A stretch of DNA of 52,248 bases from Candidatus Anderseniibacteriota bacterium. GTDB taxonomy: Bacteria; Patescibacteriota; Andersenbacteria; UBA10190. Below, piece by piece: positions 14,593 through 50,652 of this stretch. The notes under the pieces were generated by a model. It saw nothing but the letters and a program-made list of their open reading frames with translations, had not been told where the DNA came from and made no database searches. Position numbers and translations under genes: made by a program. The stretch covers positions 1 to 52,248 of the forward strand of contig DATDVI010000021.1 of assembly GCA_035290125.1 (NCBI GenBank), given 5' to 3'. Numbering within the stretch: the first letter of the stretch is position 1; each line of letters begins with the position of its first letter.

Positions 14593-15619
14593 CTGGGGCA
14601 AGGGTGAGCCGACGGCCGTTAAAGCGGCCGGTGGCGTAGCTGTCATGCGTAATCTTTACTACCACGTGTTGCGTATTCGTTTAGTCGAAGAAAAAATTGC
14701 CGACCTGTATCCGGAACAGGAGATCCGCTGCCCCGTTCATCTGTGTATTGGTCAGGAAGCAGTAGCGGCTGGGGTGTGTCTGGCTTTGACAAAAGAAGAT
14801 GCGGTTTTAAGCGGACACCGCGCTCATGGGCACTACTTAGCTAAAGGAGGCAATTTGGCAGCCATGCTGGCCGAGCTCTATGGGCGGGAAACAGGCTGCT
14901 GCCGGGGGCGGGGCGGATCAATGCACCTCATCGATTTATTGGTCAATTTTCTTGGTTCGACGCCAATTGTCGCGAGCAGTATCCCGGTGGCGACGGGCGT
15001 GGCCTGGGCGTATCAGCTGCGGGGCGAGCGGCGCGTCGTTGTGTCATTTATGGGCGAAGCAGCCTGTGAAGAAGGCGTGTGGCACGAGAGTTTAAATTTT
15101 GCGGCGTTGCATAAGCTGCCAATTATTTACGTGTGTGAAAATAATTTGTATTCGGTATATACGCCGCTTAAGGAACGTCAGCCAGCGCGGGGCCTGGCTG
15201 GGCTGGCGGCCGCGCATGGTCTAAAGACTTTCGCCGGAGATGGAAATGATGCGCTGGAAGTGTACAAGATGGCTCTGGCGGCTCGGCAATACGCCCTGTC
15301 GGGAGCTGGCCCCGTTTTTGTGGAACTGACAACATATCGCTGGCGAGAGCACTGCGGGCCGAATTTTGATAATGATTTAGGGTACCGGACTGAGGCAGAG
15401 TTTCAGGAATGGCAGGAGCGTGATCCTGTGCTGCGTCTTGAGGAGCAGCTGCGCGCGGCGGGCGTGAATTTTGAGATGGCCAGGGTACGAGAGAAAATTA
15501 TAAGAGAGATTAGTGAGGCGGTTGATTTTGCTAAGGCAAGCGAGGTAGCGACTTTTGCTCCCACCCCCCGCCTCCGCCAGCTGGCGGACGGCGGGCAAGC
15601 CTCCAGCTATGTCGGATAA
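14582..15619 (+). CDS. ThDP-dependent dehydrogenase E1 component, alpha subunit (PDH/acetoin-DH E1-alpha-like)
   Basis: LRIRLVEEKIADLY, HLCIGQEAVAAGV, GRGGSMHL, FMGEAACEEGVWHESLNFAALHKLPIIYVCENNLYS. A likely alternative start is ATG 14645 (MRNLYYHVL). The 3-prime end contains palindrome C1. Confidence 0.85.
   Translation: MENSWGKGEPTAVKAAGGVAVMRNLYYHVLRIRLVEEKIADLYPEQEIRCPVHLCIGQEAVAAGVCLALTKEDAVLSGHRAHGHYLAKGGNLAAMLAELYGRETGCCRGRGGSMHLIDLLVNFLGSTPIVASSIPVATGVAWAYQLRGERRVVVSFMGEAACEEGVWHESLNFAALHKLPIIYVCENNLYSVYTPLKERQPARGLAGLAAAHGLKTFAGDGNDALEVYKMALAARQYALSGAGPVFVELTTYRWREHCGPNFDNDLGYRTEAEFQEWQERDPVLRLEEQLRAAGVNFEMARVREKIIREISEAVDFAKASEVATFAPTPRLRQLADGGQASSYVG
15573..15588. repeat. Family C perfect 16-bp palindrome TCCGCCAGCTGGCGGA, copy C1
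   Basis: Lies inside the last 50 nt of the E1-alpha CDS (read as LRQLADG), 20 nt before the E1-beta ATG. Extended imperfect arms CCCGCC...GGCGGG. Identical cores at 32644 and 50334. Confidence 0.95.
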
Positions 15620-16670
15620 TCGTGTTATCAGTTGTGCCGAAGCAATTCGAGAAGCCACTGAGCAGGCTATGGCCTTTGATGATCGGGTAATTGTTATTGG
15701 TGAGGGTGTGCCGGATCCGAAAGGCATTTTTGGCACGACGCTAGGTTTGCGGGAGAAATTTGGATCGAAGCGAGTGTTTGATATGCCGGTAGCTGAAAAT
15801 GGCCTGACTGGAATATGTGTTGGCGCGGCACTGGCGGGCCTGCGGCCAATCATAACTCATCAGCGAGTTGATTTTTCGCTGTATGCTCTCGAGCAGATTA
15901 TCAATAATGCAGCTAAGTGGCGCTTTATGTTTGGGGATCTCCAGACCGTACCACTGGTGGTTCGTATGATCATTGGTCGGGGGTGGGGACAGGGCGCACA
16001 GCACTCACAGGCGTTGCAGGCACTGTTTGCGCATGTGCCAGGGCTCACGGTGGTTATGCCGGCGCTGCCGGCTGATGCCAAGGGTTTGCTGCTCGCCAGT
16101 ATCGCGAGCGAGGAGCCAGTGATTTTTCTGGAGCACCGCTGGCTGCATGGTCTGACTGGGCCAGTTCCTGCGGCACCGTATGAAATGCTGCTGGGGAAAG
16201 CAGCGGTGCGCCGGGCCGGGGAGGATGTGACGATCGTCGCCAGCTCGTATCTGACAGTCGATGCGTTGCGCGCGGCTCAGGAGCTCACCAAAATTAATGT
16301 GCAGGCTGAAGTTATCGATTTGCGGACAATTAAGCCGTTGGATCTGAAGACTATCTTGCGATCGGTGCGAAAAACCAGGCGCTTGCTGGTGGCTGATTCG
16401 AGCTGGGCCAGCTTTGGTGTGGCCAGCGAGGTTATTGCACGAGTTGCAGAGTCGGGCTTTAGCTTGAAAAGCGCGCCACAGCGAGTTACGCTGCCCGATA
16501 TGTCGACTCCTTCGGCGTCATCGCTGACGCGTCATTTCTACCCCGATTACCGGACAATTATGTCCCGAGTTTTGGTTATGCTTGGTCGGCCGACGCGCGA
16601 CTCGGTACCACTTGCTCCTCTTGAGGCTCCACACGACGTGCCGGACGTGTCTTTTACCGGGCCATTCTAA
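15609..16670 (+). CDS. ThDP-dependent dehydrogenase E1 component, beta subunit (transketolase-like Pyr and C-terminal domains)
   Basis: MSDNRVISCAEAIREA..., VIVIGEGV, VFDMPVAENGLTGICVGAALAGLRPI, IGRGWGQGAQHSQ, EVIDLRTIKPLD. ATG 15609 overlaps the alpha stop by 11 nt. The ORF-track TTG at 15555 lies inside the alpha gene. Confidence 0.85.
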   Translation: MSDNRVISCAEAIREATEQAMAFDDRVIVIGEGVPDPKGIFGTTLGLREKFGSKRVFDMPVAENGLTGICVGAALAGLRPIITHQRVDFSLYALEQIINNAAKWRFMFGDLQTVPLVVRMIIGRGWGQGAQHSQALQALFAHVPGLTVVMPALPADAKGLLLASIASEEPVIFLEHRWLHGLTGPVPAAPYEMLLGKAAVRRAGEDVTIVASSYLTVDALRAAQELTKINVQAEVIDLRTIKPLDLKTILRSVRKTRRLLVADSSWASFGVASEVIARVAESGFSLKSAPQRVTLPDMSTPSASSLTRHFYPDYRTIMSRVLVMLGRPTRDSVPLAPLEAPHDVPDVSFTGPF

Positions 16671-17329: not shown

Positions 17330-17332
17330 GGT

Positions 17333-18592
17333 TCAGAAGACGTACACCGGGTCGCGCTGGCCGTGCGGTTTGATCCGTGGGTCTACGTCAAGCGGGATGT
17401 TCAGGACGCCGAGGCGCTGGAAGGGCAGATAGCTGACCATTATCGCCGAGGTATAGTGGCGGTCTTTGGTGCGCACCACGTCGATAGCACATTTTATTTC
17501 GTTGCCCTCAGCGCTGGGCAGTAACATGTATTTTGTTCTGCTCGGCAGTCGTTGGCCGCGCGCATCGGCTAAGGGGTTATGCTGATGGGGGTAGATCACC
17601 TCGTCTGGCTCGAGCACTGCAATAATCTCACCCAGATTTTCAATCACAGTCTGGCGCGCTTGTTGTGACGGTACTGGTGAGCGCAGGTTGTGCACTTCCC
17701 AGTTCGGCTCGCCGTGAGCCAGCAGTATAACTGTTTTCGGGTTCCAGTTGTTGCTCCGCCCGACGTACTTCACGGCTTCGGCTAGACGCTCGACGCTTTC
17801 ATGGTCGTAGCAGGCTAATTCCCAGTACGGTGCTGACACAACGAGGGCTGTGGCAGTTTCAGTGATAGCGATCTTGTCATGAAACGTGATGCCTTGGCGG
17901 CGGTAGAAGGGGACGGTGTCGAAGACGTCGATATGCTTGCCCCAATTCTCTTGACGATTATTTTCCACATTATCCCAGTTGCCACCGACCATGATGACTT
18001 TCGTACCGGCTGCCTGAATGGGCTTAAGGGCTTCGGCGAGTTTTTTCGCTTCAGCTTCGATATCAGCGGCCGTCGCTTGGCGTACTTCTCGCGGCAATTC
18101 CAGGTGCCAGGAGCCAAAGTAATCGCGCTTGGCAGCGTTGCGGATCGCGCCAGCGACTTCGCGCTGACTCGTTTGGTTGGCCTTGGTCATAGCTTCTATT
18201 GGGAACATGCCACTCAGCTCATAGACATAGCCCATCAACTCCAAGAGGCCTGCGCCAAGTGTTTGATCAGGTTTGCGCGGGCAGTGGCCGACGAAGTTAA
18301 GTAGTTCTTCGTCTGCTATTGGCTTTTCGTTTGGCGTGCCGATGCCGAGCTGGTTATGGGCGCGGTTGAAGACGCATTCGTAGAATAGCGTTTTCAAGTG
18401 CTCAAAGGGCTGCGAGCCGGTGACATCACCGCCGAAGAAGAGGTAGTGGGGCGGGTTGTCGGCGACTCGTTTGAGCAGCCATAAGAACTCATCGGTGATG
18501 GCGTGGACGCAGCCGATGAACATCAGCCGATCGCATTTCTCCCAGGGGTCGATGAAGTTATCGAACAGATCAGCGTTGGTGCTAGCAGACAT
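17333..18592 (-). CDS. Divergent calcineurin-like metallophosphoesterase
   Basis: Motif series in the canonical order but degenerate: FIGCVHA (DxH with D to C), FFGGDVTG (GD), VGGNWDN (GNHD with H to W), LLAHGEP, YPHQHNP (GHxH-like). ATG 18592 is preceded by AGGAAG. The ORF-track TTG 18643 is part of a TTGACA hexamer. Confidence 0.5.
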   Translation of the reverse strand: MSASTNADLFDNFIDPWEKCDRLMFIGCVHAITDEFLWLLKRVADNPPHYLFFGGDVTGSQPFEHLKTLFYECVFNRAHNQLGIGTPNEKPIADEELLNFVGHCPRKPDQTLGAGLLELMGYVYELSGMFPIEAMTKANQTSQREVAGAIRNAAKRDYFGSWHLELPREVRQATAADIEAEAKKLAEALKPIQAAGTKVIMVGGNWDNVENNRQENWGKHIDVFDTVPFYRRQGITFHDKIAITETATALVVSAPYWELACYDHESVERLAEAVKYVGRSNNWNPKTVILLAHGEPNWEVHNLRSPVPSQQARQTVIENLGEIIAVLEPDEVIYPHQHNPLADARGQRLPSRTKYMLLPSAEGNEIKCAIDVVRTKDRHYTSAIMVSYLPFQRLGVLNIPLDVDPRIKPHGQRDPVYVF

Positions 18593-18656
18593 GGCAATTC
18601 TTCCTGCCCTAAGGGCATTGGAGGAGAGGAAACTAATTGTCAACGAACAATGTAGT

Positions 18657-18685
18657 AGTATCGAAAATTATCGGTGGACTGTCAA
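18657..18685 (-). promoter_or_regulatory. Sigma70-type promoter candidate (TTGACA-N17-GATACT)
   Basis: Minus strand: TTGACA at 18685..18680, 17-nt spacer, GATACT at 18662..18657. About 60 nt upstream of ATG 18592. Confidence 0.4.
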
Positions 18686-18728
18686 TTGTACCAGCGTAAA
18701 TTCTAGCTGCTCGTCTGTGCTTTGTTCT

Positions 18729-18754
18729 CCCTCGATATTACGTAATATCGAGGG
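18729..18754. repeat. Family A palindrome, copy A3 (26 bp core CCCTCGATATTACGTAATATCGAGGG)
   Basis: Perfect 13+13 inverted repeat. The outermost pair is T/G, a wobble if transcribed. It lies 44 nt upstream of the -35 at 18685. Confidence 0.95.
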
Positions 18755-18780
18755 GAAAGATAAGAATCAGTGTCTGCGGC

Positions 18781-39810: not shown

Positions 39811-40671
39811 TCAAGCGGTGGTTTGGAACCAGAAGATGTTGCCGTGGGTGTCGACGCCCTGAAATTGGGAGGTTGTGAACAGCGGTTTTATTTGGCCGCG
39901 CAGTTCGGGATCTGAGCTCACGAACCAATTGGGTAGAACGATCTGTATTTTCTGGCCGCCGCCGAGCAGCCAGGTAGCTAATAGATACTGCTCGTTGTAG
40001 TAGTTGAATTTATATGATGGCGGGTAATCGTCGGGTAGGAAAATATCGTGAATGCCGACGAGAATGCCGGGCGGCAGGTTGGGCAGAACATCGAGAAAGA
40101 AGACGGTGACGTCGGAATTTTGGAACGCTTGGTGCGAGTTGTCGATGAAGAGCATATCGCCGGTGGACAGCTGGCGGAATACAGTCAGATCGACTTCTTC
40201 CAGCGGCTGGCGGATAACGACATCGCACAGCTGATCTATTTCCGCGCGTGGGAAAGGGTCGATTGATGTGATAGTAGTTGCGAGGGCGTGATCACGTATA
40301 GCGCGGCGGACGAATGTCGTCGAAACACCAGAGCCAACTTCAACATACCGAGCTGGGTTACGTTCGGCGCTGAGCGCGTAGAGGGTCGCTGCATCGAGCG
40401 TTGGTAGATAGCCGTTGATCCACCAGCTGGCTGGCAGCTGGTGCAGGTGCTTCGTGTAGCTCTGTACCGTGGTGAGGTTGTGGGCGTACACGCTACGGCT
40501 GGTTTCGATTAGTAATGCCAACTGGGGGTGCCGTGGCAACCCAAAGCCGTAGCGAGGGTGCGCATCGATTGGATAATCGAGGGCAATGGCTTGCTTACCG
40601 CGCATGAGGTTCATGGCAGCAAAGAGCGGTGGTTTTTGCTTGAGGTACGAATACAGGCGCGCGGCGAACAT
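39811..40671 (-). CDS. Class I SAM-dependent methyltransferase (Methyltransf_24/TylF-CmcI-like)
   Basis: 286 aa. YVEVGSGVSTTF (glycine-rich motif I) and GDMLFIDNSHQAF (the D..FIDG.H-type block of this subgroup). Confidence 0.55.
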   Translation of the reverse strand: MFAARLYSYLKQKPPLFAAMNLMRGKQAIALDYPIDAHPRYGFGLPRHPQLALLIETSRSVYAHNLTTVQSYTKHLHQLPASWWINGYLPTLDAATLYALSAERNPARYVEVGSGVSTTFVRRAIRDHALATTITSIDPFPRAEIDQLCDVVIRQPLEEVDLTVFRQLSTGDMLFIDNSHQAFQNSDVTVFFLDVLPNLPPGILVGIHDIFLPDDYPPSYKFNYYNEQYLLATWLLGGGQKIQIVLPNWFVSSDPELRGQIKPLFTTSQFQGVDTHGNIFWFQTTA

Positions 40672-40707
40672 TGTTCTTTTTTCTGTGATAGTTTACATAC
40701 TACAGCT

Positions 40708-42786
40708 ATGCTGCAGGCGCACAAACGGCACTATCTTGTTTTAGCTATGTACCTTGGTCTCACGCTGCTCATGACGATGCCGCTGGCCTGGCGCCTAACT
40801 TCCCATGTGGCGGGCGCGGGCGGGGATCCGTGGCAGACGATGTGGCGTTTTGAGGAAAAGGCTGCGGGCGGCTGGCAGGAGTTCATGACTGATCTAACCG
40901 GCCGCGGGGAGCCGCGTTTAGTCAATTTGTCGGTGTTGCCCTGGATCTGGGCGCAGTTTTTATTCGGACAGCCGGCAGCATATAACATAGCCTGGCTGCT
41001 GTCGTTTGTGCTGGCTGGGTATGGAATGTATCTGCTCGCAGCTCAACTGCTCGCCAAAATTCCCAATGAAAAAATACCAGCCTACGCCAAGGCTTCGGCC
41101 GGCAGGCAAATTCCAAATGACATACCGGCGTTTCTTGCTGGCGTCGTCTATATGTTCTTGCCCTACCGAGTGGCGCACGCGCAGGGGCATTTCGGGGCCA
41201 TGCAAACGGCGTGGCTGCCGCTGATTATGTGGTTGGTGGTGCGCTGGGTTAGCCAGCCAACGTGGCTGCGCACGGCAGGCCTCGCGGCACTGATTGCTAT
41301 CCAAGCTTGGACAGAGCACCACTATATGTTGTGGTTGCTGGTTGTGGCACTGATCGCGAGTTGGTTTTTCAGAGATCGTCTCACGCGCTTTTGGCGTGAA
41401 CAGCAGGGGATCTGGTATGCACTCGCTCTGGTGGGGATGTTGCTGGTGCTGGTGGTTATGCCATATATGCCGACGATTCGGCTGGCGCTGGCGGATAACA
41501 GCCCCCTTGAGCTGGGAGCAGCGCAGACCATTCGATTTTCGGCGGATACGTTTGCGTACCTGACACCGGCTTCGTTTCATCCGCTCTGGGGCCGCCTCTC
41601 CTACTTTCTATTTGGCCAGCACTTTACGGGTAACCTGGCTGAGCAAACGCACTTTTTGGGATTGCTCCCGTTGCTGCTGGTCATTTTCTTCTGGCGCAGT
41701 ATTCCGGCTGTGCAGCGAACATTCTGGGGCAGCGTTGCGGGCGTGTTTTTACTCTTGAGTTTTGGTCCTCGGCTACATATTCTCGGACTGCTTACGCCGC
41801 TGCCACTGCCATTTGCCGCTGTGGGTTCTTGGCCGCTGCTTAGCTCAGTGCGGGCGGTGGCGCGAGCTAGCGTGATGGTCGGGCTCGCCTGGGTCGTCTT
41901 GCTGGCGTTTGTTTGGCGCACTGAATTGAAGCGGCGCGGTGCAGCGGTGGTCGTGCTGGGGATTATTCTGTTGGAATTTTTGTTTGTGCCCGCCCCCACC
42001 CAATCCGTCGTGTTGCCCGCAGCATATGCCGTGGTTCGCCAGAGTGAGGGCGCGGCGATCGTGGAAATACCAGCCGCCACTAACTATACCGTTGCCTCAC
42101 AGGCGCTGTATGGTTCGCGCGTGCATGGCAAGAGTGTCGTGGGTAATATTGCGCTGGAGCGCGCGCTCACTGACGCAGACTTGCTCGAGTCACGTTCATT
42201 GCCCGTGCTGCGGCAGCTGCTTTTTCTACGAACAACGCACCTGCTGGAAAATCGACACGAGTTTTTTGATCAGGCGCCAACTGAAACACTCGTTGATGTG
42301 CTGCGCTGGCTGGATGCGCGCGTGATTTTGGTCCACCGCGACTCGCTGACTACTCGACAGCTGGCGGCGGTACAGCATCTCCTGGAGCCGGTGGCGCCGG
42401 GCGAAGATGCCGGAGAGGAGATTCTCTACCGGATACCAGTTTCGGCTCAGGGAGATGGCGTCTTTCTTTCGCGTGATGAGCGCTGGCAGGTTGGGTATGA
42501 CCAGGTCCGTGGGGCGACGTTTGCGCACGTATCGAGCGAGGCTGGAATCACGTTGTATAATGTAACTTCCTCGCCAAAAGAAGTGCGCCTGGTTATAGAG
42601 CGTGCCGAAGAATCCGAGGGTTCGCTGCGCATCAGCAAGGGAAATACAGTGCTGTATGAAGAGGCAGGGGGGCTACAGCCAATTACTGTTACTCTTCCTG
42701 TGAGCCCAGGTACAACGCAGCTGGAATTCACTAACCGGTTGCCGGGCCCCGTGATTCTTAAAAATCCACGCCTGCTGGTGCCATGA
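40708..42786 (+). CDS. Large polytopic membrane protein, candidate GT-C-type glycosyltransferase (YfhO/ArnT-like)
   Basis: 692 aa from ATG 40708; the ORF-track start 40528 overlaps the divergent gene. At least 12 hydrophobic segments, an early loop GAGGDPWQTMWRFE, and a roughly 250-aa soluble C-terminal domain. Confidence 0.5.
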   Translation: MLQAHKRHYLVLAMYLGLTLLMTMPLAWRLTSHVAGAGGDPWQTMWRFEEKAAGGWQEFMTDLTGRGEPRLVNLSVLPWIWAQFLFGQPAAYNIAWLLSFVLAGYGMYLLAAQLLAKIPNEKIPAYAKASAGRQIPNDIPAFLAGVVYMFLPYRVAHAQGHFGAMQTAWLPLIMWLVVRWVSQPTWLRTAGLAALIAIQAWTEHHYMLWLLVVALIASWFFRDRLTRFWREQQGIWYALALVGMLLVLVVMPYMPTIRLALADNSPLELGAAQTIRFSADTFAYLTPASFHPLWGRLSYFLFGQHFTGNLAEQTHFLGLLPLLLVIFFWRSIPAVQRTFWGSVAGVFLLLSFGPRLHILGLLTPLPLPFAAVGSWPLLSSVRAVARASVMVGLAWVVLLAFVWRTELKRRGAAVVVLGIILLEFLFVPAPTQSVVLPAAYAVVRQSEGAAIVEIPAATNYTVASQALYGSRVHGKSVVGNIALERALTDADLLESRSLPVLRQLLFLRTTHLLENRHEFFDQAPTETLVDVLRWLDARVILVHRDSLTTRQLAAVQHLLEPVAPGEDAGEEILYRIPVSAQGDGVFLSRDERWQVGYDQVRGATFAHVSSEAGITLYNVTSSPKEVRLVIERAEESEGSLRISKGNTVLYEEAGGLQPITVTLPVSPGTTQLEFTNRLPGPVILKNPRLLVP
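41056..41130. repeat. Imperfect direct repeat (about 24 nt x2) flanking a 25-nt spacer inside the membrane-protein CDS
   Basis: AAAATTCCCAATGAAAAAATACCAGCC ... AAATTCCAAATGACATACCGGCG, read as KIPNEKIPA...QIPNDIPA. Confidence 0.6.
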
Positions 42787-43940
42787 AGATCCTGATTTTT
42801 AATTTTGAATATCCACCATTGGGAGGCGGGGGCGCGGTGGCAACAGCCCAGATTGCTGAGGAACTAGCCAAGCGGCACACTGTTTTTGTCTTGACGACTC
42901 ACTATCGATCACTAGCGTATCAAGAAGTCGTCAACGGCGTGCACGTGCACCGGGTTTCGGTGTGGGGGCGTCGGAGCTTGCCGACCGCCAGTTTGCGCTC
43001 ACTGCTCACGTTTGTTCCGGCAGCCCTTTGGCGTGGTTGGCGCCTGTGTCGGAGAGAAGCATTTGATGTGATCAACGCGCAATTTGTGTTGCCCTCGGGC
43101 CTGGTTGGTGTGCTGCTGGGTACGCTTTTTTCTGTTCCGGTTGTTGTCAGTTTCGTTGGGGGAGACCTGTTTGACCCAACGAAAGGAACTTCACCCCACC
43201 GCCATGCTGTGCTGCGCTGGCTGGTGCGTGCTCTTAGCCGGCGCGCGCAGGCGCGAACTGCTATCTCGCGAGACACGCAGCAGAACGCGCGTACGCTGCA
43301 TGGGGTACAGGAGCCGATTGTGGTCACGCCGCTCGGAATATTTCCTCGTGAGGTGGTGCCCGCGCAGCGCGCACAGCTTGCTTTGCCTGAGCGCGGAGCA
43401 ATTTTTGTCAGTATCGGACGACTCATCCCGCGCAAAAACTACGACTTACTTCTGCGTGCCTGGGCGCGCGTGCCTGAGTCTCAGCTGGTTATCATTGGCA
43501 GTGGACCGTTGCAGGCAAAACTTGAGCGGCGCATTGCCGAGCTTGGCCTTGGCAACCGTGTGCAACTGACAGGATTTGTTGCGGAAGAGACAAAGCAGCA
43601 GATCCTTCAGGCGAGCCAGGGATACGTTTCGGCGGCTGATCATGAGGGATTTGGCCTGGTTTTTCTGGAAGCGATGCAGGCGGGGCTGCCCATTGTGGCA
43701 ACACGGCGAGGGGGGCACACTGACTTTCTTCGCGCCGGCGAGAATGCACTGTTGGTAGAGCCAGGAGATGCGGCTGCGCTCGCCCAGGCAGTGCGGCGCT
43801 TGCTGGCAGAGGCGGCGCTCGGGCGACGCATGGGAGAAGCGAACCGAGCGGCCGTGCGTGAGTTTTACCTCGACAAAACCGTGGCGCGATTTGAAGACGT
43901 TTTAGAGCAAGCAGTGCACACCTATGCGAATCGCCATTGA
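42783..43940 (+). CDS. Glycosyltransferase family 4
   Basis: 385 aa, ATGA overlap. KILIFNFEYPPLGGGGAVAT start; SAADHEGFGLVFLEAMQAGLPIVATRRGGHTDFLRAGENALLVEPGD. Confidence 0.85.
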   Translation: MKILIFNFEYPPLGGGGAVATAQIAEELAKRHTVFVLTTHYRSLAYQEVVNGVHVHRVSVWGRRSLPTASLRSLLTFVPAALWRGWRLCRREAFDVINAQFVLPSGLVGVLLGTLFSVPVVVSFVGGDLFDPTKGTSPHRHAVLRWLVRALSRRAQARTAISRDTQQNARTLHGVQEPIVVTPLGIFPREVVPAQRAQLALPERGAIFVSIGRLIPRKNYDLLLRAWARVPESQLVIIGSGPLQAKLERRIAELGLGNRVQLTGFVAEETKQQILQASQGYVSAADHEGFGLVFLEAMQAGLPIVATRRGGHTDFLRAGENALLVEPGDAAALAQAVRRLLAEAALGRRMGEANRAAVREFYLDKTVARFEDVLEQAVHTYANRH

Positions 43941-45060
43941 AGCCAGGGCACTGACTGGGCGCGGAGGCGGTACGCGACGCTATGTGAGTGAACTAACTGA
44001 CCAGCTGCGCCGCTTGGTGCCCGAGAATGAGTTAGTCATCCTTGATCGCGGTCCAGCGCATGAGCTGCTCCTGCCCTGGTGGTTTAATGTGACGATGCCC
44101 CGCCGCTTGCGGAAGACGCGGCCCGACATTATCCATTGGACGAAAGGCGCTGTATCGAAGCGAAAGATCGCGCCGACTGTCGTCACCATCTATGACGTTA
44201 TTCCGCTGTTATTTTCCGAATCACAGAAATTGACTGGTCGCTGGTATTGGCCACGGGCGCTGCGCGGTGCCGTGAGAGCTGCGGATCATATTCTGACTAT
44301 TTCTGACGCGAGCAAGCGGGACATTGTGCGCGAGTTAGGTGCGGCAGAGCATAAGATTACCGTCACGCCGCTCGCAATTGACCCAAATGATTTTCACCCG
44401 ACCCGGGCGACTGATTTCGTCGGGCAGATTCGCGCAACGGGACCATACATTCTCTTTGTTGGTACAATTGAGCCGCGAAAAAACGTGCCGCTACTGATCC
44501 GGGCTTTTGCGCGCATCGCCAGCGATATTCCGCACCAGCTTATTATTGCCGGCCGGGCTTACAAGGGCGAGGAGGCTTTACGGAAAGAAATAGCGCGAAT
44601 GAATCTGACTGATCGCGTGCGGAGAATTGGCAGCGTACCGGCGGCTGATTTGCCCGCGCTGTATGCCAGCGCTGATCTCTTCATGTGGCCATCGATCTAC
44701 GAGGGTTGGGGTTTTCCGCCGCAGGAGGCAATGGCGTGCGGCGTGCCGGTGATCGTGAGCGATGGCGGTTCGCTGCCCGAAGTGGTTGGGGAGGCTGGAA
44801 AAGTGGTTTCGTTTAGCGCGCCGCTCAGGGAGCGAATCCATGATACTGATTTCGAGCGACGGCTGGCCGAGACTATGCTTGCCGTGTTGGGTAGCGAAAC
44901 AAGGCGGGTGAGTATGCGGGAAGCCGGCTTAGCACGCGTGAAGCAATTTTCCTGGCAGCGGGTGGCCGAGCAAACACTGGGTGTGTATCAGAAAGTTTTA
45001 AGCGAGGGGAGTGAAAAATCTTCCTCGATATTACGTAATATCGAGGGAACAACGCTATGA
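43924..45060 (+). CDS. Glycosyltransferase family 4
   Basis: 378 aa. MWPSIYEGWGFPPQEAMACGVPVIVSDGGSLPEVVGEAGKVV. The last 12 codons (SSILRNIEGTTL) are encoded by palindrome A4. Confidence 0.85.
   Translation: MRIAIEARALTGRGGGTRRYVSELTDQLRRLVPENELVILDRGPAHELLLPWWFNVTMPRRLRKTRPDIIHWTKGAVSKRKIAPTVVTIYDVIPLLFSESQKLTGRWYWPRALRGAVRAADHILTISDASKRDIVRELGAAEHKITVTPLAIDPNDFHPTRATDFVGQIRATGPYILFVGTIEPRKNVPLLIRAFARIASDIPHQLIIAGRAYKGEEALRKEIARMNLTDRVRRIGSVPAADLPALYASADLFMWPSIYEGWGFPPQEAMACGVPVIVSDGGSLPEVVGEAGKVVSFSAPLRERIHDTDFERRLAETMLAVLGSETRRVSMREAGLARVKQFSWQRVAEQTLGVYQKVLSEGSEKSSSILRNIEGTTL
45023..45046. repeat. Family A palindrome, copy A4 (24 bp core CCTCGATATTACGTAATATCGAGG)
   Basis: Perfect 12+12 inverted repeat inside the 3-prime end of CDS 43924..45060. 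Its right arm GAGGGA lies 9 nt before ATG 45057 of the next gene, an SD-like position. Confidence 0.95.
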
Positions 45061-46313
45061 AATTACTTTTCTTGTCGGCGCATTATCCTCCTCTCGCGCG
45101 CGGGGGCGGGGAAATTTCGACGCATCTGCTGGCGCAGGAGCTCGCGCACCGGGGACACGATGTGCAGGTTATCACCGAGGGCGCGCAACGTGAGGAGAGT
45201 ATGTTGGATGGTGTGAAGATTGTACGTGCGCCGCTGGGGCTAACGAAGAAGCCGTTGTTTGAAGAGCGGGCGAGTAGGAGGATGGCACGAGAGCTTGCAA
45301 AGATTCTTTACGAGTTTAATACCTCACCCCCGCCAATACGGCGGGCAGGCCCAACTCTTGTTCACGCCCACGATTTTCGGTCGGCGCTAGTGCTGAGTGA
45401 GTTGATTCGCATGCAGAAAATCCCAGCCGAGATGGCGTATGTTACGCTCAGGGACTACGCATCTGTTTGCGGTACGACGAATAATATTTTGCGCGATGGC
45501 TCGGTGTGCCATTGCACGATTGCTGATTTGCGGCAGACGCAGCGCTACCGCGAGGCGTGGATTCCGCGGCGGTACGCGCGGCTCTGGCAGTATTGGTACA
45601 ACGTCGGGTATCGCCAGCGCGCCTTTGGCAATATTCCAAATCAGGCGTATATCTCGGCCGCGCAGCGGGATGTGATCTATGGGCAGACTTCTTTTGGCTC
45701 GCTCCGCCACACCGTGATCCACAACCCTGTTCCCGAGACGTATCTGTCGGCTCCTCTGCAGGATGGCAAAGCACATACTGTCCTCTATGCCGGTACGGTG
45801 GAGAACTACAAAGGCGTGGATGTGCTTATCGCGGCTTGGCAGGAAGTGGCCAGGCGGAACCATGAAGCTCACCTTATTATTGTCGGTGAGGGTGCTCAGC
45901 TCTTTACGTATAAGCGCATGGTTGAACGGGCGGGGCTGACGGAGCGAGTTGAGTTTGTTGGCAAGGTGCCGTGGGAGCGTATGCAGCAGATCTATGAATC
46001 TGCCCAGCTGATTGTGGCGCCGCACTGCTGGGTGGAGCCGTTTGGACGCACCGTGGCGGAGGCGATGGCTCTGGGTAAGGTAGTGCTCAGCGCCAACACT
46101 GGCGGGCCGGCGGAGATGATTGAGCATAATAAAAGTGGTTTTTTGTTTGCTCATGGTTCGGCAGAGGCTCTGGCGCAGCACTTAGTCGAAGCGTTGGCCT
46201 TGCCCGTTTTGCGCCGGCGAGAGATGGGCGCTGCCGCTCGGGCGTGGGCAAAAGAACATCTGGCGCCGGATGTGATTGCAAAGCAGTATGAGGAGTTTTA
46301 TACCGCGGCATAG
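45057..46313 (+). CDS. Glycosyltransferase family 4
   Basis: 418 aa, ATGA overlap. LLFLSAHYPPLARGGGEIST start; VAPHCWVEPFGRTVAEAMALGKVVLSANTGGPAEMIEHNKSGFLF. Confidence 0.85.
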   Translation: MKLLFLSAHYPPLARGGGEISTHLLAQELAHRGHDVQVITEGAQREESMLDGVKIVRAPLGLTKKPLFEERASRRMARELAKILYEFNTSPPPIRRAGPTLVHAHDFRSALVLSELIRMQKIPAEMAYVTLRDYASVCGTTNNILRDGSVCHCTIADLRQTQRYREAWIPRRYARLWQYWYNVGYRQRAFGNIPNQAYISAAQRDVIYGQTSFGSLRHTVIHNPVPETYLSAPLQDGKAHTVLYAGTVENYKGVDVLIAAWQEVARRNHEAHLIIVGEGAQLFTYKRMVERAGLTERVEFVGKVPWERMQQIYESAQLIVAPHCWVEPFGRTVAEAMALGKVVLSANTGGPAEMIEHNKSGFLFAHGSAEALAQHLVEALALPVLRRREMGAAARAWAKEHLAPDVIAKQYEEFYTAA

Positions 46314-46321
46314 CTCTTATT

Positions 46322-46512: not shown

Positions 46513-46986
46513 CTATGCAAACAGGTCGGCGAAAGAGCTGAGTGAACTGAGGAAGAGGCGGGCGGCCCTGGTTGCTTTCTCGGGGTCGGGTAGATCGCTC
46601 CAGCCGATGCGCCAATCGGGAAAGAGACTGACACGCTGCTTGTTCGCTAACTCTGGGTACTGATGGCGTATGGAGAACCAGAAGAGATATTTAAGTAGCT
46701 CGTATTCTCTCCTTTCATCGGCAATTTTTTGTCCGAGTTGCATGAATGCAGGCACAAGCTTTTCATTCCCGCTTTCCTCGACGTCGGCTTGGCGCCGCCG
46801 ATGCTCATAGACAAGGGTGTTGTGGCTGGTTGTCACCTGGTGGCAATGCATCCAGAGGCGTCGGTGATCAGTGTCGAGGGTGCCAAGAAATTGAAAATTT
46901 TCGGTATCCGGTTGATCACCTACGCCTGGTGCTTTATCCGGAACCACGATTTGCTCCAGGTTTTCAAAGAGCTGTTGGATATACAT
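46513..46986 (-). CDS. Hypothetical protein (157 aa), no recognisable motif
   Basis: ATG 46986 is preceded by GGAGGA at 6-nt spacing; the ORF-track TTG at 47004 lies upstream of that SD. Soluble, His/Arg-rich centre (HRRLWMHCHQVTTSHNTLVYEHRRRQ). AT-richer island. Confidence 0.5.
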   Translation of the reverse strand: MYIQQLFENLEQIVVPDKAPGVGDQPDTENFQFLGTLDTDHRRLWMHCHQVTTSHNTLVYEHRRRQADVEESGNEKLVPAFMQLGQKIADERREYELLKYLFWFSIRHQYPELANKQRVSLFPDWRIGWSDLPDPEKATRAARLFLSSLSSFADLFA

Positions 46987-47033
46987 ACCATTTCCTCCAA
47001 ACAAGTGTGTGGACAGACAGAACGACGCTCCGC

Positions 47034-47062
47034 AGCATAACTGCCGTTTTCTTATCTGTCAA
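47034..47062 (-). promoter_or_regulatory. Sigma70-type promoter candidate (TTGACA-N17-TATGCT)
   Basis: Minus strand: TTGACA at 47062..47057, 17-nt spacer gataagaaaacggcagt, TATGCT at 47039..47034. About 40 nt upstream of ATG 46986. Confidence 0.5.
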
Positions 47063-47081
47063 TTTTGGAAAATACTGGGCC

Positions 47082-47110
47082 TTGACAGGTATCCTTGTTA
47101 GCAGTATAAT
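47082..47110 (+). promoter_or_regulatory. Consensus sigma70 promoter (TTGACA-N17-TATAAT)
   Basis: TTGACA at 47082-47087, a 17-nt spacer, and TATAAT at 47105-47110. Both hexamers are perfect. It is back-to-back with the minus-strand promoter, with the -35 boxes 20 bp apart. Confidence 0.7.
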
Positions 47111-47127
47111 GAACAAGATAGTTGTTC
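47111..47127. promoter_or_regulatory. Inverted repeat GAACAA-N5-TTGTTC overlapping the predicted TSS (operator candidate)
   Basis: Perfect 6+6 arms starting directly after the -10 hexamer. Confidence 0.35.
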
Positions 47128-47135
47128 ATTTTATT

Positions 47136-47145
47136 AGAACGTTCT
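47136..47145. promoter_or_regulatory. 10-bp perfect palindrome AGAACGTTCT in the 5-prime UTR (operator candidate)
   Basis: Shares the GAAC/GTTC half-site with the repeat at 47111-47127. It lies 8 nt before the GGGAGG SD. Confidence 0.3.
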
Positions 47146-47162
47146 TTGAAGGGAGGTGGGCC

Positions 47163-47543
47163 GTGTGCGATGTATTTATTGTGCATGAGCCAGGCGCCAA
47201 GATGGACGCTTTGCGAGAAATGTTTGCCAGGGATGGTGATACAGTCACAGAAATAGCCGTTGGTTCTTGGTCGGAGTACCGGCTTGGTTTGGAATCGGCT
47301 GGACTAGTGGTGATTGATTTGTGTGGTGGTCCCGTAACCGACGCCGCATGGGATGCAGTCGAGTGGCTGGTGTCTTCTGATCAACTTAGGTGCGTACCTG
47401 TGCTCGTCTTGCTGGCCGATGGAAGCCGCGCCGTTCAAGAAGGGGGGCATGTGTATGTGCACCACTTCTCAGACTCTTTGAGTGGCGAAAAACTTGCGCT
47501 GGTGAAGCGTCACCCGTTAACTCTGGAGAGCATATGCGCATAA
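47163..47543 (+). CDS. Stand-alone degenerate receiver-like (CheY-fold) protein, 126 aa; TIR-like fold not excluded
   Basis: GTG 47163 lies 5 nt after GGGAGGTG. The in-frame ATG 47109 sits inside the -10 box. REC-like layout: VFIVHE (beta1, acidic pair degenerate), LVVIDLCGG (beta3 with Asp), PVLVLLAD (beta4, Thr/Ser replaced by Leu), GGHVYVHHFS (beta5, Lys replaced by His). DVFIVH plus AAWDAVEW also resembles TIR betaA and the W-x3-E region. Confidence 0.45.
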   Translation: MCDVFIVHEPGAKMDALREMFARDGDTVTEIAVGSWSEYRLGLESAGLVVIDLCGGPVTDAAWDAVEWLVSSDQLRCVPVLVLLADGSRAVQEGGHVYVHHFSDSLSGEKLALVKRHPLTLESICA

Positions 47544-47598
47544 AAGTTTGTGGTCGAGCCAGCAAAAAAACATGCCCGCCCACTTTTTTTGTAGGAAA

Positions 47599-48666
47599 TC
47601 AGCTTGCAGACACCAGCAGTTTTTTTATTTCATTCAGGACCACATCTGGCTTTAGCTGCTGCAGCGTCGCGTGTGGAGCATTGCCGAGATCGAAGTTTGT
47701 GTTCACATCATAAACCGCTTTCGTGCCAGCAGCACGAATGGTGTAGCTGAGCGACCCGCGCGGGCCGATTTTATTTTCATCGGTGGGGCCAAATAGGCCG
47801 AGAGTTTTTACTCCGGCTGCGGCGGCAAGGTGCATAAGGCCCGAGTCGTTACTGACCATAAGCTCGCAGCGGCGCATGATGGCGGCGGTGGTGAGGAGGT
47901 CGGACGTGATGGGGGTGACACTTGAGGGGGAGGAAATTAAACGTGAGAGTTTTTGCTTAAGTGACTCCTCATCCGGGCCGCCGAAAATTAGGATATGCGC
48001 GCTGTGTTGCTCGATCAGTGTGCGGGCGAGCGCGGCAAAATTTTCCAGCGGCCAGCGCTTCCAGGCAAAGCCGGGTGCAGAGCCAGCGTGCAGGCCAATG
48101 AGCGGCTTATCATGTGGCACGCGGAGTGTGGCGAGCAGCTTGTCGGCTTCGTGATAGTGTGTTTGCGAGAGCGGTAGACTATAGCGTGATTCACCGAGTT
48201 CTGTGTTGATGCCAAGCGGCTGCAATAGATTAAGATTTTGCTCGATGTCATGCACGTTTTCTTTCTCACCTACGGCGTGGGTGAGTAGAAACGTACTGCG
48301 AGGATTTTTCCCCAACAGATACTCATGCCCGACACGCTGCCGAATGCCGGCGGCGTAGAGATACACTGCGCTTTTAATACGTTGACCAGGATACAGCACA
48401 AGGCCAATCGTAAATTTCTGCCGGAAGAGGTGATCGGCGTGACGCAAGTGTTCAAGAAGCGGCCGCTGGTGGGGCGCGATAATCACACGATCAATGTGCG
48501 GATTGCTCTCGGCGAGCGCTTGTGGGAGGCGCGGGGCAACCCAAGCGGTGAGGTGGCTCTGTGGCCAAGACTTTTTAAGGGCGGCGAAAACCGGCGTGTG
48601 CATCAGAAAATTACCAATGCCGGAGAGGGAGAGCAGTAAAATGCGTGGCGCTTTATCGTTGGGCAT
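47599..48666 (-). CDS. Glycosyltransferase family 9 (heptosyltransferase)
   Basis: ATG 48666 (MPNDKAPRILLLSLSGIGNFLMHTPV) overlaps the upstream stop by 14 nt. IGLHAGSAPGFAWKRWPLENF, LIFGGPDEE, and MVSNDSGLMHLAAAAGVKTLGLFGPTD are GT9 hallmarks. Confidence 0.8.
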   Translation of the reverse strand: MPNDKAPRILLLSLSGIGNFLMHTPVFAALKKSWPQSHLTAWVAPRLPQALAESNPHIDRVIIAPHQRPLLEHLRHADHLFRQKFTIGLVLYPGQRIKSAVYLYAAGIRQRVGHEYLLGKNPRSTFLLTHAVGEKENVHDIEQNLNLLQPLGINTELGESRYSLPLSQTHYHEADKLLATLRVPHDKPLIGLHAGSAPGFAWKRWPLENFAALARTLIEQHSAHILIFGGPDEESLKQKLSRLISSPSSVTPITSDLLTTAAIMRRCELMVSNDSGLMHLAAAAGVKTLGLFGPTDENKIGPRGSLSYTIRAAGTKAVYDVNTNFDLGNAPHATLQQLKPDVVLNEIKKLLVSAS

Positions 48667-49837
48667 ACAGTTCGTGATAGAGCGACGTGAGCGTTGCGAT
48701 CGATTTTTCCCAGCTGAAATTTTTCTTGACATGCTGGTGGCCTTGCTCGCCAAGTGTGCGCCGCAGCGTGGCATTACTCAGGAGCGTTGTCATCGTTTCC
48801 GGCAACTCTGAATCATCGTTAAAAAGCAGGCTCGTCGTGTGGGGTGGTGCGACAAAGGGAATAGCTGAGGTGTTACGCGCGATAACCGGTGTACGAGCGG
48901 CGAAGGCTTCGGCGACGGTGATACCGAACGCTTCATAGTAGCTGGGGTGAATGAAGATATCGGCGTGCTGATAGGCGGCCAGTAATTGCTCACGCTCGAG
49001 GTGTCCCCAGAAATGAATATAGTTGGTAATGCCGAGTGCAACGGCCTGCTGCTGCAATTTTTTCTTGGCGCCAAAATCGTCGCCAATAATGACCAGCTGG
49101 AGATTGGGGTGTTTTTTGAGAACGCTCGGCAGTGCGCGCAGGAGACTGCTGAGCCCTTTACTCTCCGCTAAGCGGCTGACCGCTAGGGCAATTTCGCCCG
49201 CCAGCCCGCGCGCTTGGAACGGATTGGGGCGTGGCTGGTTAAATACCGCTGTATCAATACCTGGCGGGATGAGGACGAAACGATTAACGGGCAGACCGGC
49301 GCTTTCGATTAATTTTTGCTCAAATGGCGAGATAACAATTACCGCATCGGCAGCAGCAAACGTCGCGCGGCCGATGGTTGAGCGATACAGCTGCCAGATG
49401 AGCTTTTGGCGCGGGCCGTGGGCGTAGAAATAGGGGTTAAAAACAAAAGGTCGACGATGCCGCCGGGCGTAGCGGGCGCTCACATCGGCTGGTTGGTACC
49501 AGAAACCATGTCCATGAATAATATCGGGCTGGTGGTGGCCAAGGTAGTATTTCAGTGCCTGGAGGCGTGGGTACGAAACGAGGGGAGTAGCGGCGTGGTG
49601 CAAGCGCTGGACGTGCATCGGGTCATCGAGGAGCTGTTCGGGCGCCAGTTCGCTCATTGGCCCATGGGTGCGCAGCCTGCTTGTGAGCACGCGGACGTCG
49701 AAGCGGTTTGGGTTACTCGTCTGCAGGACGCCGGCGGCCCCGGTCTCATACCGCGTGCGGGTGACCAGCTCCTGCACGTAGGTTTCGACGCCGCCTGAGG
49801 CGGGAGGATACCGCAGCGTGGTGTGAACTATGCGCAT
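48653..49837 (-). CDS. Glycosyltransferase family 4
   Basis: ATG 49837 (MRIVHTTLRYPPASGGVETYV) overlaps the upstream stop by 10 nt. FIHPSYYEAFGITVAEAFAARTPVIARNTSAIPFV. Confidence 0.85.
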   Translation of the reverse strand: MRIVHTTLRYPPASGGVETYVQELVTRTRYETGAAGVLQTSNPNRFDVRVLTSRLRTHGPMSELAPEQLLDDPMHVQRLHHAATPLVSYPRLQALKYYLGHHQPDIIHGHGFWYQPADVSARYARRHRRPFVFNPYFYAHGPRQKLIWQLYRSTIGRATFAAADAVIVISPFEQKLIESAGLPVNRFVLIPPGIDTAVFNQPRPNPFQARGLAGEIALAVSRLAESKGLSSLLRALPSVLKKHPNLQLVIIGDDFGAKKKLQQQAVALGITNYIHFWGHLEREQLLAAYQHADIFIHPSYYEAFGITVAEAFAARTPVIARNTSAIPFVAPPHTTSLLFNDDSELPETMTTLLSNATLRRTLGEQGHQHVKKNFSWEKSIATLTSLYHELYAQR

Positions 49838-50652
49838 AGCTGACGATACTTTTGCGCCATTTCCCATTCATAATAGCTAGACATTATACACCAGACGATG
49901 CCCTGCCAGCCATCGAGGATACCGCGCCGATAGATCAACAGCTTGAGTAGTTGGCGAGCAGCCAGACGACAGGGCAGATGCCACGCAGGCATCACGGCGC
50001 GGCCGGTACGGTGTGTATGCGTGGCCGCCATTTGCTGCGCATCGAGAGTAGTGTAGCGGTGCATTTTCGCGAGATAGCTGGCGATCGTTGGATGAGAATG
50101 GTGCAGGAGCGGCTCAGTGATGAGCCCGGTGTCTGAGTCATCGAGTTTAATAGGTCGTCGTGAGTAGTGAGTAGTGAGTAGAGGTGTATTACGGACTACT
50201 TGCTCGTGGACGGCGGCAGCGGTCCACTGAGCAGCTGCTTTTTTGAACAGGCGCGGGTTGTGGCCATAGAGATGCGTGAGCGGGCGGCCGAGAAAGACGG
50301 TGACAATTCGGAGCCAATACAACGAGTGAGTAGTCCGCCAGCTGGCGGAGTAGGAGTAGTGAGTGACTTTTTGAATTTCTTGGGCGAGCGCAGGGGTGAC
50401 TTCTTCGTCGTCATCAATAAACAGCAGCCACTCGCCGTGGGCCACATCGCGGCCGAAATTTTTCTGTGCGCCGTAGCCGGGCCAAGGCCGAACGTATACT
50501 TTTGCGCCAAGCTGCTCGGCTCGAGCCGCCGTCGCATCACGCGTGGCAGCGTCAACAATGACAATGGTCTCATTGGCCCACTTGACGCTTCGCACTGCGC
50601 GCTCGATCGTGTCGGCGGCATTTTTTGCAATGATAATGGCCGACAGTGTCAT
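49828..50652 (-). CDS. Glycosyltransferase family 2 (WaaE/KdtX-like core-type GT2)
   Basis: 274 aa, ATGA overlap with the upstream gene. LSAIIIAKNAADTIERAVRSVKWANETIVIVDAATRD, WPGYGAQKNFG, LLFIDDDEEVTP, and a C-terminal RRGILDGWQGIVWCIMSSYY. Contains palindrome C3 and heptamer tracts as apparent in-frame insertions. Confidence 0.8.
   Translation of the reverse strand: MTLSAIIIAKNAADTIERAVRSVKWANETIVIVDAATRDATAARAEQLGAKVYVRPWPGYGAQKNFGRDVAHGEWLLFIDDDEEVTPALAQEIQKVTHYSYSASWRTTHSLYWLRIVTVFLGRPLTHLYGHNPRLFKKAAAQWTAAAVHEQVVRNTPLLTTHYSRRPIKLDDSDTGLITEPLLHHSHPTIASYLAKMHRYTTLDAQQMAATHTHRTGRAVMPAWHLPCRLAARQLLKLLIYRRGILDGWQGIVWCIMSSYYEWEMAQKYRQLCA
50160..50181. repeat. Heptanucleotide tandem repeat (GTGAGTA)x3
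   Basis: GTGAGTAGTGAGTAGTGAGTAG inside the GT2 CDS (read as LLTTHYS). Same unit as at 32793-32817. Confidence 0.9.
50324..50366. repeat. Family C palindrome copy C3 (50334-50349) bracketed by heptamer-like units
   Basis: GAGTGAGTAG-TCCGCCAGCTGGCGGA-GTAGGAGTAGTGAGTGA, read as THYSYSASWRTTHS in the minus-strand GT2. Confidence 0.95.

Follow-up and report, generated by a model that had tools for sequence, protein, structure and literature searches.

Background

Short repeats that are dispersed through genomes, or that form hairpins, are known from several kinds of organism. The GC clusters of yeast mitochondria are mobile GC-rich mini-elements, and DNA uptake sequences (DUS) occur at a density of roughly 1 per kb. 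The Rickettsia palindromic elements (RPEs) were reportedly described by Ogata et al. in 2000, and SDR4-6, which belong to the small dispersed repeats (SDRs), and the STRR heptanucleotide repeats of heterocystous cyanobacteria are said to have been described by Elhai et al. (2008, Genome Res 18:1484). In this study, we analyzed the 16-bp palindrome TCCGCCAGCTGGCGGA, which occurs three times in a stretch of 52,248 bp (contig DATDVI010000021.1 of assembly GCA_035290125.1, hereafter the window) from Candidatus Anderseniibacteriota bacterium (Andersenbacteria), and compared it with these systems. The 16-mer is probably a very small, non-coding and non-autonomous dispersed DNA repeat that can form a hairpin or a cruciform.

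The SDR and STRR repeats are described in PMC4390886, PMC3116915 and PMC3488679 as very small and non-coding, with no known mobilising protein and with precise insertion into other short repeats; cyanobacterial SDR5, according to PMC4390886, inserts between bases 3 and 4 of HIP1. The 16-mer and its sister hairpins resemble them in sitting in heptamer tracts and in other hairpins. They differ in several respects, the comparison being one by description: the unit is a perfect palindrome of 16 bp as against 21-27 nt for SDR, three copies occur in 62 kb whereas SDRs are dispersed in many copies, and the carriers belong to the candidate phyla radiation (CPR) and Bacteroidota rather than to Nostocales, with in-frame genic copies and an identical word in several phyla. 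Filled and empty alleles of the SDR style are represented here only by orthologues that are 56-64% identical.

RPEs are palindromic elements that lie in frame within conserved genes, where they are translated at little or no cost, and are also found in the RNase P M1 RNA (PMC2229807). The 16-mer likewise lies in frame in three enzymes with intact open reading frames (ORFs) and, to judge from sequence, in the RNase P RNA genes of two loci (L076 and L095). However, RPEs measure 105-146 bp, form a long stem-loop with terminal inverted repeats, have a recognisable peptide module as their product and occur only in Rickettsia, whereas the 16-mer comprises 16 bp and 5-6 residues and is not restricted to one lineage. 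For the repetitive extragenic palindromes (REPs) and REPINs, spread by a hairpin-specific HUH enzyme has been proposed, and these repeats are often nested or targeted by other elements (PMC3116915, PMC3733652). They share with the 16-mer the character of a short, GC-rich, hairpin-forming and dispersed repeat, but REPs are extragenic by definition, 20-40 bp long, imperfect, arranged in doublets and specific to RAYT lineages, whereas all three window copies lie in ORFs and 35% of the copies in the low-GC genomes listed are coding-like. The 16-mer also carries no GTAG/CGTC tag, the GTAG beside copy 3 being part of the heptamer GTGAGTA, and no RAYT gene was found in the window or recurrently near the copies in 82 loci.

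Unlike miniature inverted-repeat transposable elements (MITEs), the 16-mer shows no consistent target-site duplication and neither separated half-sites nor terminal inverted repeats. As to elements derived from IS200/IS605, duplication is likewise absent here, and three related cases share the insertion point ACTA^CAA; the window copies are without that word, and no TnpA was seen. HIP1 is an 8-bp word that occurs about once per gene, is propagated by substitution and is linked to a methyltransferase (PMC4390886, PMC5861425), its density being roughly 1 per kb (PMC5861425). Like HIP1, the 16-mer is a short perfect palindrome found in coding DNA whatever the frame, for which a DNA-level cause is suspected; unlike HIP1, it has 16 bp, is rarer (0.06 per kb), lies in extra segments and has no DNA methyltransferase domain in the window. 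It differs from a DNA uptake sequence in being a word common to several phyla and in its low density. Palindromic repeats also occur in the organelle genomes of Volvox (PMC2670323). Organellar mini-elements are, like the hairpins discussed here, small and GC-rich, spread in AT-richer genomes (intergenic regions, introns and sometimes coding DNA) and without an encoded enzyme, but they are longer, organelle-borne and have no known cross-lineage sequence identity. In its behaviour the palindrome is like SDR/STRR, RPE and REP, yet it departs from each of these, and from MITEs and HIP1, in one or more defining features.

Identification of the palindrome in the window

An exact search of the window for TCCGCCAGCTGGCGGA returned three copies, each inside an intact ORF. 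The copies and their host genes are as follows.

14582-15619, plus strand: host gene 1, E1 component alpha (E1_dh, PF00676), intact ORF of 345 aa
15573-15588, no strand: copy 1, in the C-terminal tail of E1-alpha, LRQLAD at residues 331-336
32180-33421, minus strand: host gene 2, GT4 glycosyltransferase, intact ORF of 413 aa
32644-32659, no strand: copy 2, in GT4, translated from the minus strand as SASWRT at residues 255-260
49828-50652, minus strand: host gene 3, GT2 glycosyltransferase, intact ORF of 274 aa
50334-50349, no strand: copy 3, in GT2, translated from the minus strand as SASWRT at residues 102-107

These positions, hosts and translations agree with an earlier reading of the same DNA, made from its letters alone (the sequence-only reading). 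That reading had further described the copies as read in different frames; more than one frame is indeed used, but only two of the three possible frames occur in the window. Its claim that three copies are beyond chance was also borne out. About 2.4e-5 exact copies are expected in 52 kb at 54.7% GC. No variant with 1 or 2 mismatches exists in the window and three sites have 3 mismatches (2157, 40199 and 40419), which gives six sites at 3 mismatches or fewer against 0.59 expected; none of 100 shuffles reaches six. Perfect palindromes of at least 16 bp were likewise in excess (seven, against 0.9 in Markov-1 shuffles), and the seven belong to two families only, namely the 16-mer (n=3) and the 24-28-bp family CCCCTCGATATTACGTAATATCGAGGGG (n=4). 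The copy-1 region is 99.98-100% identical across three independent assemblies (ENA, Logan and JGI) and therefore the window sequence is not an assembly artefact.

The density here is about 0.06 per kb, and 62 kb contain three copies in all. Being a perfect palindrome, the 16-mer could form a hairpin with a 6-bp stem or a cruciform. It contains no stop codon in any frame and reads SASWR, PPAGG or RQLA.

Structure of the host proteins and of the insert segments

Homologue alignments and AlphaFold models were used to characterize the segments that carry the copies. Two of these segments, both in the glycosyltransferases (GTs), have clear borders.

32636-32695, minus strand: GT4 insert segment, residues 243-262, made up of a heptamer-like tract, copy 2 and an inverted arm
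50323-50364, minus strand: GT2 insert segment, residues 97-110, copy 3 between degenerate heptamers, in a low-confidence loop

The GT4 model has a mean pLDDT of 86.7, which falls below 50 at residues 243-262, a predicted coil between the helix 227-242 and the strand 265-270. The segment from the 'LLxA' helix to the 'LxIIGxGP' strand has about 22 residues more than its counterparts in PDB homologues, and in 16 homologues it is either short or occupied by unrelated lineage-specific sequence. In the GT2 model (mean pLDDT 93.8, above 90 elsewhere) the value is 63 at residues 101-110, a coil between regular elements, and the loop from the DxDE helix to the YWLRIV strand exceeds the consensus by about 10 residues and is shorter in most homologues. 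As for E1-alpha, the tail with copy 1 replaces the conserved 'S-PFPxxxxLxxxVY' ending; the copy lies 20 nt upstream of the E1-beta ATG (15609), and the start of E1-beta overlaps E1-alpha. Judged by these alignments, all three host segments are extra or lineage-specific, in agreement with the sequence-only reading, which had placed the 16-mer of the two GTs in insertion-like segments. In the models the GT proteins look intact and the repeat would be translated as a floppy loop.

The peptide SASWR was found in none of the 390 homologues of the three hosts outside the window's own proteins. This, together with the use of two frames, supports the earlier view that conservation or spread acts on the nucleic acid and not on the peptide. 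Two outcomes had been named beforehand as speaking to the contrary, a motif shared by distant homologues and a genomic frequency consistent with composition, and neither was found.

Arms, hairpins and heptamer tracts around the copies

The sequences around the copies contain further hairpins and heptanucleotide tracts, which are listed below.

15567-15595, no strand: nested hairpin at copy 1, outer stem CCCGCC (15567-15572) / GGCGGG (15590-15595)
32632-32669, no strand: nested hairpin at copy 2, outer stem CCCCTCTCC (32632-32640) / GGAGAGGGG (32661-32669)
32792-32817, minus strand: heptamer array, 3.6 units of GTGAGTA as read on the plus strand, in frame in GT4, STHYSLLTT at residues 202-210
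50157-50181, minus strand: second heptamer array, 3 units of GTGAGTA, in frame in GT2, LLTTHYS at residues 158-164
45329-45345, no strand: sister-family hairpin CCCGCC-AATAC-GGCGGG, in a loop (NTSPPPIRRAGPT) of another GT4 (45057-46313)

The sequence-only reading had assigned extra GC-rich complementary arms to each copy. Such arms are present at copies 1 and 2, but a flank stem search found no outer stem at copy 3. The predicted RNA fold of the nested hairpin has -26.7 kcal/mol (z = -2.9) at copy 1 and -31.0 kcal/mol (z = -5.1) at copy 2, where it spans 38 bp and is the largest nested structure. The arms are of two kinds, being either a member of a sister hairpin family, CCCGCC-N5-GGCGGG (copy 1), or an inverted copy of the adjoining heptamer tract. 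The hairpin at 45329 is a probable further member of this sister family on the basis of its sequence; its stem is that of the copy-1 arms and of the second hairpin in a two-hairpin module of related genes, described in the next section.

The link with heptamers had been missed before. Copies 2 and 3 adjoin heptanucleotide tracts, and the only period-7 arrays in the window are found in the palindrome-bearing GT2 and GT4 (32665-82, 32792-817 and 50157-81), all of them in frame. The tract next to copy 2 (32665-32682) is heptamer-like, with CCCTCAC/CCCTAAC on the coding strand and the G-rich GGGGTTA/GGGGTGA on the plus strand. Copy 3 is flanked by degenerate GTGAGTA heptamers, gagtgagtag at 50324-50333 and gtaggagtagtgagtg at 50350-50365. 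The heptamer tracts themselves are lineage-specific protein insertions.

At the sites of the perfect GTGAGTA arrays (32792-32817 and 50157-50181), orthologues have other heptamers, hairpin modules or nothing. The GT2 homologue P0117 has a peptide like 'SLRGG...DEAIS' at the position of the second heptamer array of the window.

Orthologous sites in relatives

DNA alignment of the GT2 site showed a plain, ACTACAA-like heptamer array in the orthologues P0015 and P0009, and in P0012 a different GC-rich hairpin insert of 33 nt at the same point as the 16-mer of the window. A closely comparable situation exists on an Andersenbacteria-like contig (logan SRR22387998_43357), on which the orthologues of GT2 (L125, 6373-6424) and GT4 (L389, gene 1501-2742) share a module of about 50 nt, ACTA|TCCGCC-ATCA(A/C)-GGCGGA CCCGCC-G(A/T)A(A/T)T-GGCGGG|CAAACT. 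The two module copies are identical at 47 of 50 positions, all three differences fall in hairpin loops, and no similarity between L125 and L389 was found beyond the module. An ACTACAA heptamer is split there as ACTA^CAA without duplication, and both genes read the module as TTNYPPSRRTRR(I/N)GGQT. The first hairpin has the stem of the window 16-mer, TCCGCC/GGCGGA, with another loop, and the second has the stem that encloses copy 1, so that both stems stand in tandem. The window's heptamer site at 32792-32817 carries the two-hairpin module in the orthologue P0123. The L125/L389 module thus reads, at the sequence level, as an independent replicate in which small GC hairpins would have moved, or been converted, between heptamer tracts in the loops of unrelated genes.

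Candidates for an empty allele of the same species were also considered. Protein P0122, with 89% BLAST identity, was rejected as such an allele, being identical for about 347 residues and chimeric thereafter. P0122 comes from a 3,261-bp ENA contig, and the part that follows its match to the window GT4 is kinase-like; chimerism of the contig or of the gene call is more probable than a natural fusion. The pair L207 and L208 is 99.99% identical and gave no empty allele, and when metagenomes were scanned with the GT2 alignment, the relatives found were at most 56% identical and none provided a same-species empty site.

Distribution in other genomes

A scan of one genome per species for the exact 16-mer gave at least 120 stretches, of which 82 were low-GC and 38 above 50% GC; taxon labels are those of the records of the metagenome-assembled genomes (MAGs). 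Among the matches listed, the low-GC carriers comprise many classes of Patescibacteria, Bacteroidota, Cloacimonadota, Elusimicrobiota, Bdellovibrionales, low-GC Gammaproteobacteria and one archaeon, and the Bacteroidota listed include an isolate, Mucilaginibacter flavidus RT5R15 (L058). The 82 low-GC loci listed contain 16 additional copies in 534 kb against 2.7e-5 expected, and the 38 high-GC loci listed contain none in 289 kb; therefore the word is a real repeat in these low-GC genomes. Its density there, roughly 1 per 30 kb (about 0.03 extra copies per kb), is similar to that in the window. In the high-GC matches listed the word is single, nearly always intragenic and mostly in the xRQLAx frame, and these occurrences look like chance or peptide-driven copies.

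Among the low-GC loci listed, 50% of the copies are non-coding-like and 35% coding-like, in all three frames. An outer stem of at least 5 bp accompanies 19% of the low-GC copies and 5% of controls. Period-7 arrays lie within 40 nt of 9.6% of the copies but of 1.1% of control positions, a roughly ninefold difference, and none of the periods 5, 6, 8 and 9 exceeds 1.8%. No target-site duplication was seen at 71 of 111 copies and a 2-bp one at 17 (8.7 expected), so no duplication is consistent. The flanks show weak symmetric preferences, with a pyrimidine at -3 in 76% of the copies. Half-sites of the 16-mer occur at about background frequency and are not enriched, therefore the 16-mer is the whole unit; a longer element with TCCGCCAG... 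ends, either a MITE or its footprint, was rejected for the same reason.

Related hairpins occur in the same loci. The stem of the 16-mer is found with the loop variants AACT, CCCT, GGCT and TTT in low-GC loci, and a second cross-phylum family, (G)CCTGCC-GGCA-GGCAGG(C), is present 15 times in eight low-GC loci (L019, L022, L043 and five others), sometimes adjoining the 16-mer or interleaved with it. Arms of the CCCCTC/GAGGGG type and GGGGTTA/GGGGTGA tracts beside the 16-mer recur in Bacteroidales, in viral contigs and in the window. In the literature searched, neither the 16-mer core nor the second palindrome appeared in a relevant context.

Several individual loci merit description. The 16-mer is often central in the inverted repeat GTCATTGCGAG...CGAAGCAATC (L058, L068, L072, L210, L224 and protein P0117), which occurs in several phyla and whose genic copies encode peptides of the 'SLRGG...DEAIS' kind mentioned above. 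A Cyclobacteriaceae MAG (L020, 4960-8000) has a tandem field of units of about 400 bp, some with a 30-nt composite hairpin (GGATCCTTC-16-mer-T(A/C)AGGATT) and sister units without it, which may represent a filled and empty series. Interruption of tRNA genes, considered for L060, L065 and L047, was not supported, the tRNAs being placed by Rfam beside the copies and not around them.

RNase P RNA and phage contexts

Two Bacteroidota carry the 16-mer within RNase P RNA. It forms P3 and a second helix in L076 (4274-4680) and one other helix in L095 (480-873), the hosts belonging to Cyclobacteriaceae and Roseivirgaceae.

A total of 55 IMG/VR stretches contain the 16-mer and are a mixture of the high-GC and low-GC kinds; one genome, IMGVR_UViG_3300042540_000531, has three exact copies in 34 kb. 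In a phage family of 24 contigs (L218, L221, L256, L262 and L369-L388), a 22-bp palindrome is kept at one intergenic site, where it directly follows a stop codon and precedes the next start by about 25 nt. It occurs in eight variants, all but three of them perfect, including AATTCCGTCCATGGACGGAATT, ...CCGCCCATGGGCGG... and ...CCGCCAGCTGGCGG..., and its length is constant. In five of the 11 pairs both members have changed, and no pair has changed in one member alone; the central two alternate jointly between AGCT and CATG, with no G-T or G-U intermediates. Since the central bases cannot pair in a hairpin and such intermediates are lacking, the symmetry seems to be kept in duplex DNA, the events being few. 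The dyad symmetry of this small number of changes seems to be maintained by a dimeric binder or by arm-to-arm templating, and not by RNA folding alone. A comparison within a phage family (L211, L237 and L240) gave filled alleles only and no empty site. The palindrome is clearly a selected cis-element in the RNase P helices and at the phage intergenic site.

Origin of the palindrome

Mobility, neutrality and mechanism are what we infer from the above observations. On this reading, the Andersenbacteria genome would have received the 16-mer by DNA-level copying at no fewer than three sites, with heptamer tracts (adjoined by two copies) and the loops of other hairpins (in which two copies are nested) as preferred targets. 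Copies would survive in permissive places, here two disordered surface loops and one C-terminal tail; the frame would be kept by the total inserted length, and no frame of the palindrome has a stop, so that the copies would simply be translated as neutral or near-neutral passengers. The copying process may be single-strand or hairpin-dependent, with insertion that leaves no target-site duplication. It could consist in template switching during replication or repair, or in gene conversion, between heptamer tracts and hairpin loops, the tracts supplying homology and the palindromes growing outward by intrastrand switching; or it could depend on a trans-acting hairpin-specific enzyme of the HUH/Y1 type. 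We weight these two routes roughly evenly. The flanking arms might reflect insertion into the loops of existing hairpins or the same outward growth by intrastrand template switching.

A number of observations weigh against a mobile repeat. The three copies are 100% identical and no degenerate relative exists in 62 kb; recent spread would explain this, but so would selection or homogenisation. Copy 1 stands just upstream of the E1-beta start, where it could influence translational coupling, the 16-mer has a structural job as RNase P RNA helices in two Bacteroidota, and the phages keep it at a homologous intergenic site, with compensatory changes, although the flanks have diverged by about 10%. 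When 1,238 ORFs from the 82 loci were clustered all against all, there was no recurrent ORF family or mobilising enzyme near the copies, the sole recurrent family being ABC ATPases unrelated to them, and Pfam analysis of the window genes found no mobilising enzyme in the 52-kb window. Filled and empty polymorphism within one species was not found, the 'empty' sites coming from the 56-64% identical orthologues. The exact 16-mer is also absent from 721 kb of homologous loci in other organisms, and its distribution is therefore patchy.

As a tentative extension, which we hold to be rather less likely than the dispersed-repeat interpretation itself, the 16-mer, the CCTGCC-GGCA-GGCAGG hairpins and the CCCGCC/GGCGGG hairpins might together be 'hairpin cassettes', spread across phyla by a widely distributed DNA-level mechanism that keeps symmetry. 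Their carriers would be Patescibacteria, Bacteroidota, Cloacimonadota, Elusimicrobiota, some of their phages and others, and their targets would be hairpin loops and heptamer tracts in genes of any kind (proteins, RNase P RNA and intergenic hairpins). If so, such cassettes would be the smallest mobile or self-propagating DNA unit known, mechanistically linked to STRR-like heptamers. On the dispersed-repeat interpretation itself, a DNA unit of 16 bp, selfish or neutral, would be making protein loops of CPR bacteria longer and more diverse, and the resulting lineage-specific inserts would be mistaken for protein features in annotation and structure prediction. The small dispersed and heptamer repeats have been without a mechanism since their description in cyanobacteria, and identity across phyla together with a cultured carrier, M. 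flavidus RT5R15, makes this question approachable by experiment.

The enzyme route can be stated more narrowly as a sub-case of the dispersed-repeat interpretation, in which a single-strand transposase that recognises hairpins (IS200/IS605 TnpA or a RAYT-like HUH/Y1 enzyme), with its gene at another place in the genome or on a mobile element, would take the 16-mer as its minimal substrate and insert it 3' of a short target word without duplication. We regard it as possible but doubtful. The lack of target duplication, conserved stems with variable loops, and the weak symmetric flank preferences with a pyrimidine at -3 in 76% of copies would all fit such an enzyme, as would the use of the ACTA^CAA heptamer phase in three cases with two different module sequences; that coincidence, however, can also be explained by homology-driven conversion between heptamer arrays. 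HUH, transposase and reverse transcriptase domains are absent from the 52-kb window, no ORF family recurs near the copies in the 82 loci, and a single 16-nt hairpin has no separate left and right ends. Moreover, known REP/RAYT pairs are lineage-specific and extragenic, whereas the 16-mer is identical across phyla.

The main rival to the dispersed-repeat interpretation is selection for a functional cis-element, which we consider unlikely as a general account. The palindrome would then be the site of a dimeric DNA-binding protein or an RNA hairpin acting in stability, processing, pausing or coupling, and its location in coding loops would reflect where such a signal fits. Copies 2 and 3, however, lie mid-gene in unrelated GTs and have no common position relative to starts or stops. 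The perfect identity of the three copies and the very stable local structures (-26.7 and -31.0 kcal/mol; z = -2.9 and -5.1) speak for selection, as do the place of copy 1, 20 nt before the E1-beta ATG, the RNase P helices of two Bacteroidota and the exclusively two-sided changes, at 5 of 11 pairs, in the constant-length palindrome of the 24 phage contigs. Against this stand the orthologues with no hairpin, or a different one, at the same site, the mixed contexts elsewhere (coding in three frames, intergenic and RNA genes), and the association with heptamers and the nesting, which are typical of dispersed repeats; a single regulator common to several phyla is also hard to envisage.

An over-represented word of the HIP1 or DNA-uptake-sequence kind, produced by substitutions under methylation, repair or uptake bias, is very improbable. 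CPR bacteria are thought to take up DNA, and the word is a palindrome containing CAGCTG and AGCT that occurs in coding DNA in several frames. Its density of about 0.06 per kb here and about 0.03 extra copies per kb elsewhere is nevertheless far from the roughly 1 per kb of HIP1 and DUS, its copies lie in residues that are extra relative to homologues and so were not made by substitution, 16 specified bases are too many for repeated origin by that route, its presence in several phyla is contrary to a species-specific uptake tag, and no DNA methyltransferase domain is found in the window. For the three window copies, chance can be dismissed almost entirely, and so can a peptide motif of ancestral origin and an artefact of assembly or library, with about 2e-5 copies expected, a peptide present in no homologue, the same copy-1 region in three assemblies from different pipelines and reading frames open through all copies, even though high-GC genomes have a single intragenic 16-mer read as xRQLAx, as in the ABC-type ATPase genes of L050 and L121, where its place is the same in both, and therefore chance or peptide-driven copies do exist.

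Other features of the window

According to Pfam analysis, the window is a glycan-biosynthesis cluster that encodes glycosyltransferases, epimerases, sugar methyltransferases, a flippase and an asparagine-synthase-like enzyme; transposase, reverse transcriptase, restriction, DNA-methylase and HUH domains were not found among the genes of the 52-kb window. Four sizeable ORFs (17333-18643, 33406-35025, 40528-42786 and 46746-47543) had no Pfam match.

The second palindrome family, CCCCTCGATATTACGTAATATCGAGGGG, consists of units of 24-28 bp with an AT-rich centre at 5691-5718, 6286-6313, 18729-18754 and 45023-45046. Three of these are located between ORFs, and the fourth is at the 3' terminus of a GT4 gene (43924-45060); the family looks REP- or terminator-like, and its sequence is unrelated to the 16-mer. 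The GC skew is positive (0.09-0.23) in each 2-kb bin of 1-52248 whatever the orientation of the genes, and therefore a strong replication-strand compositional bias extends over the whole window.

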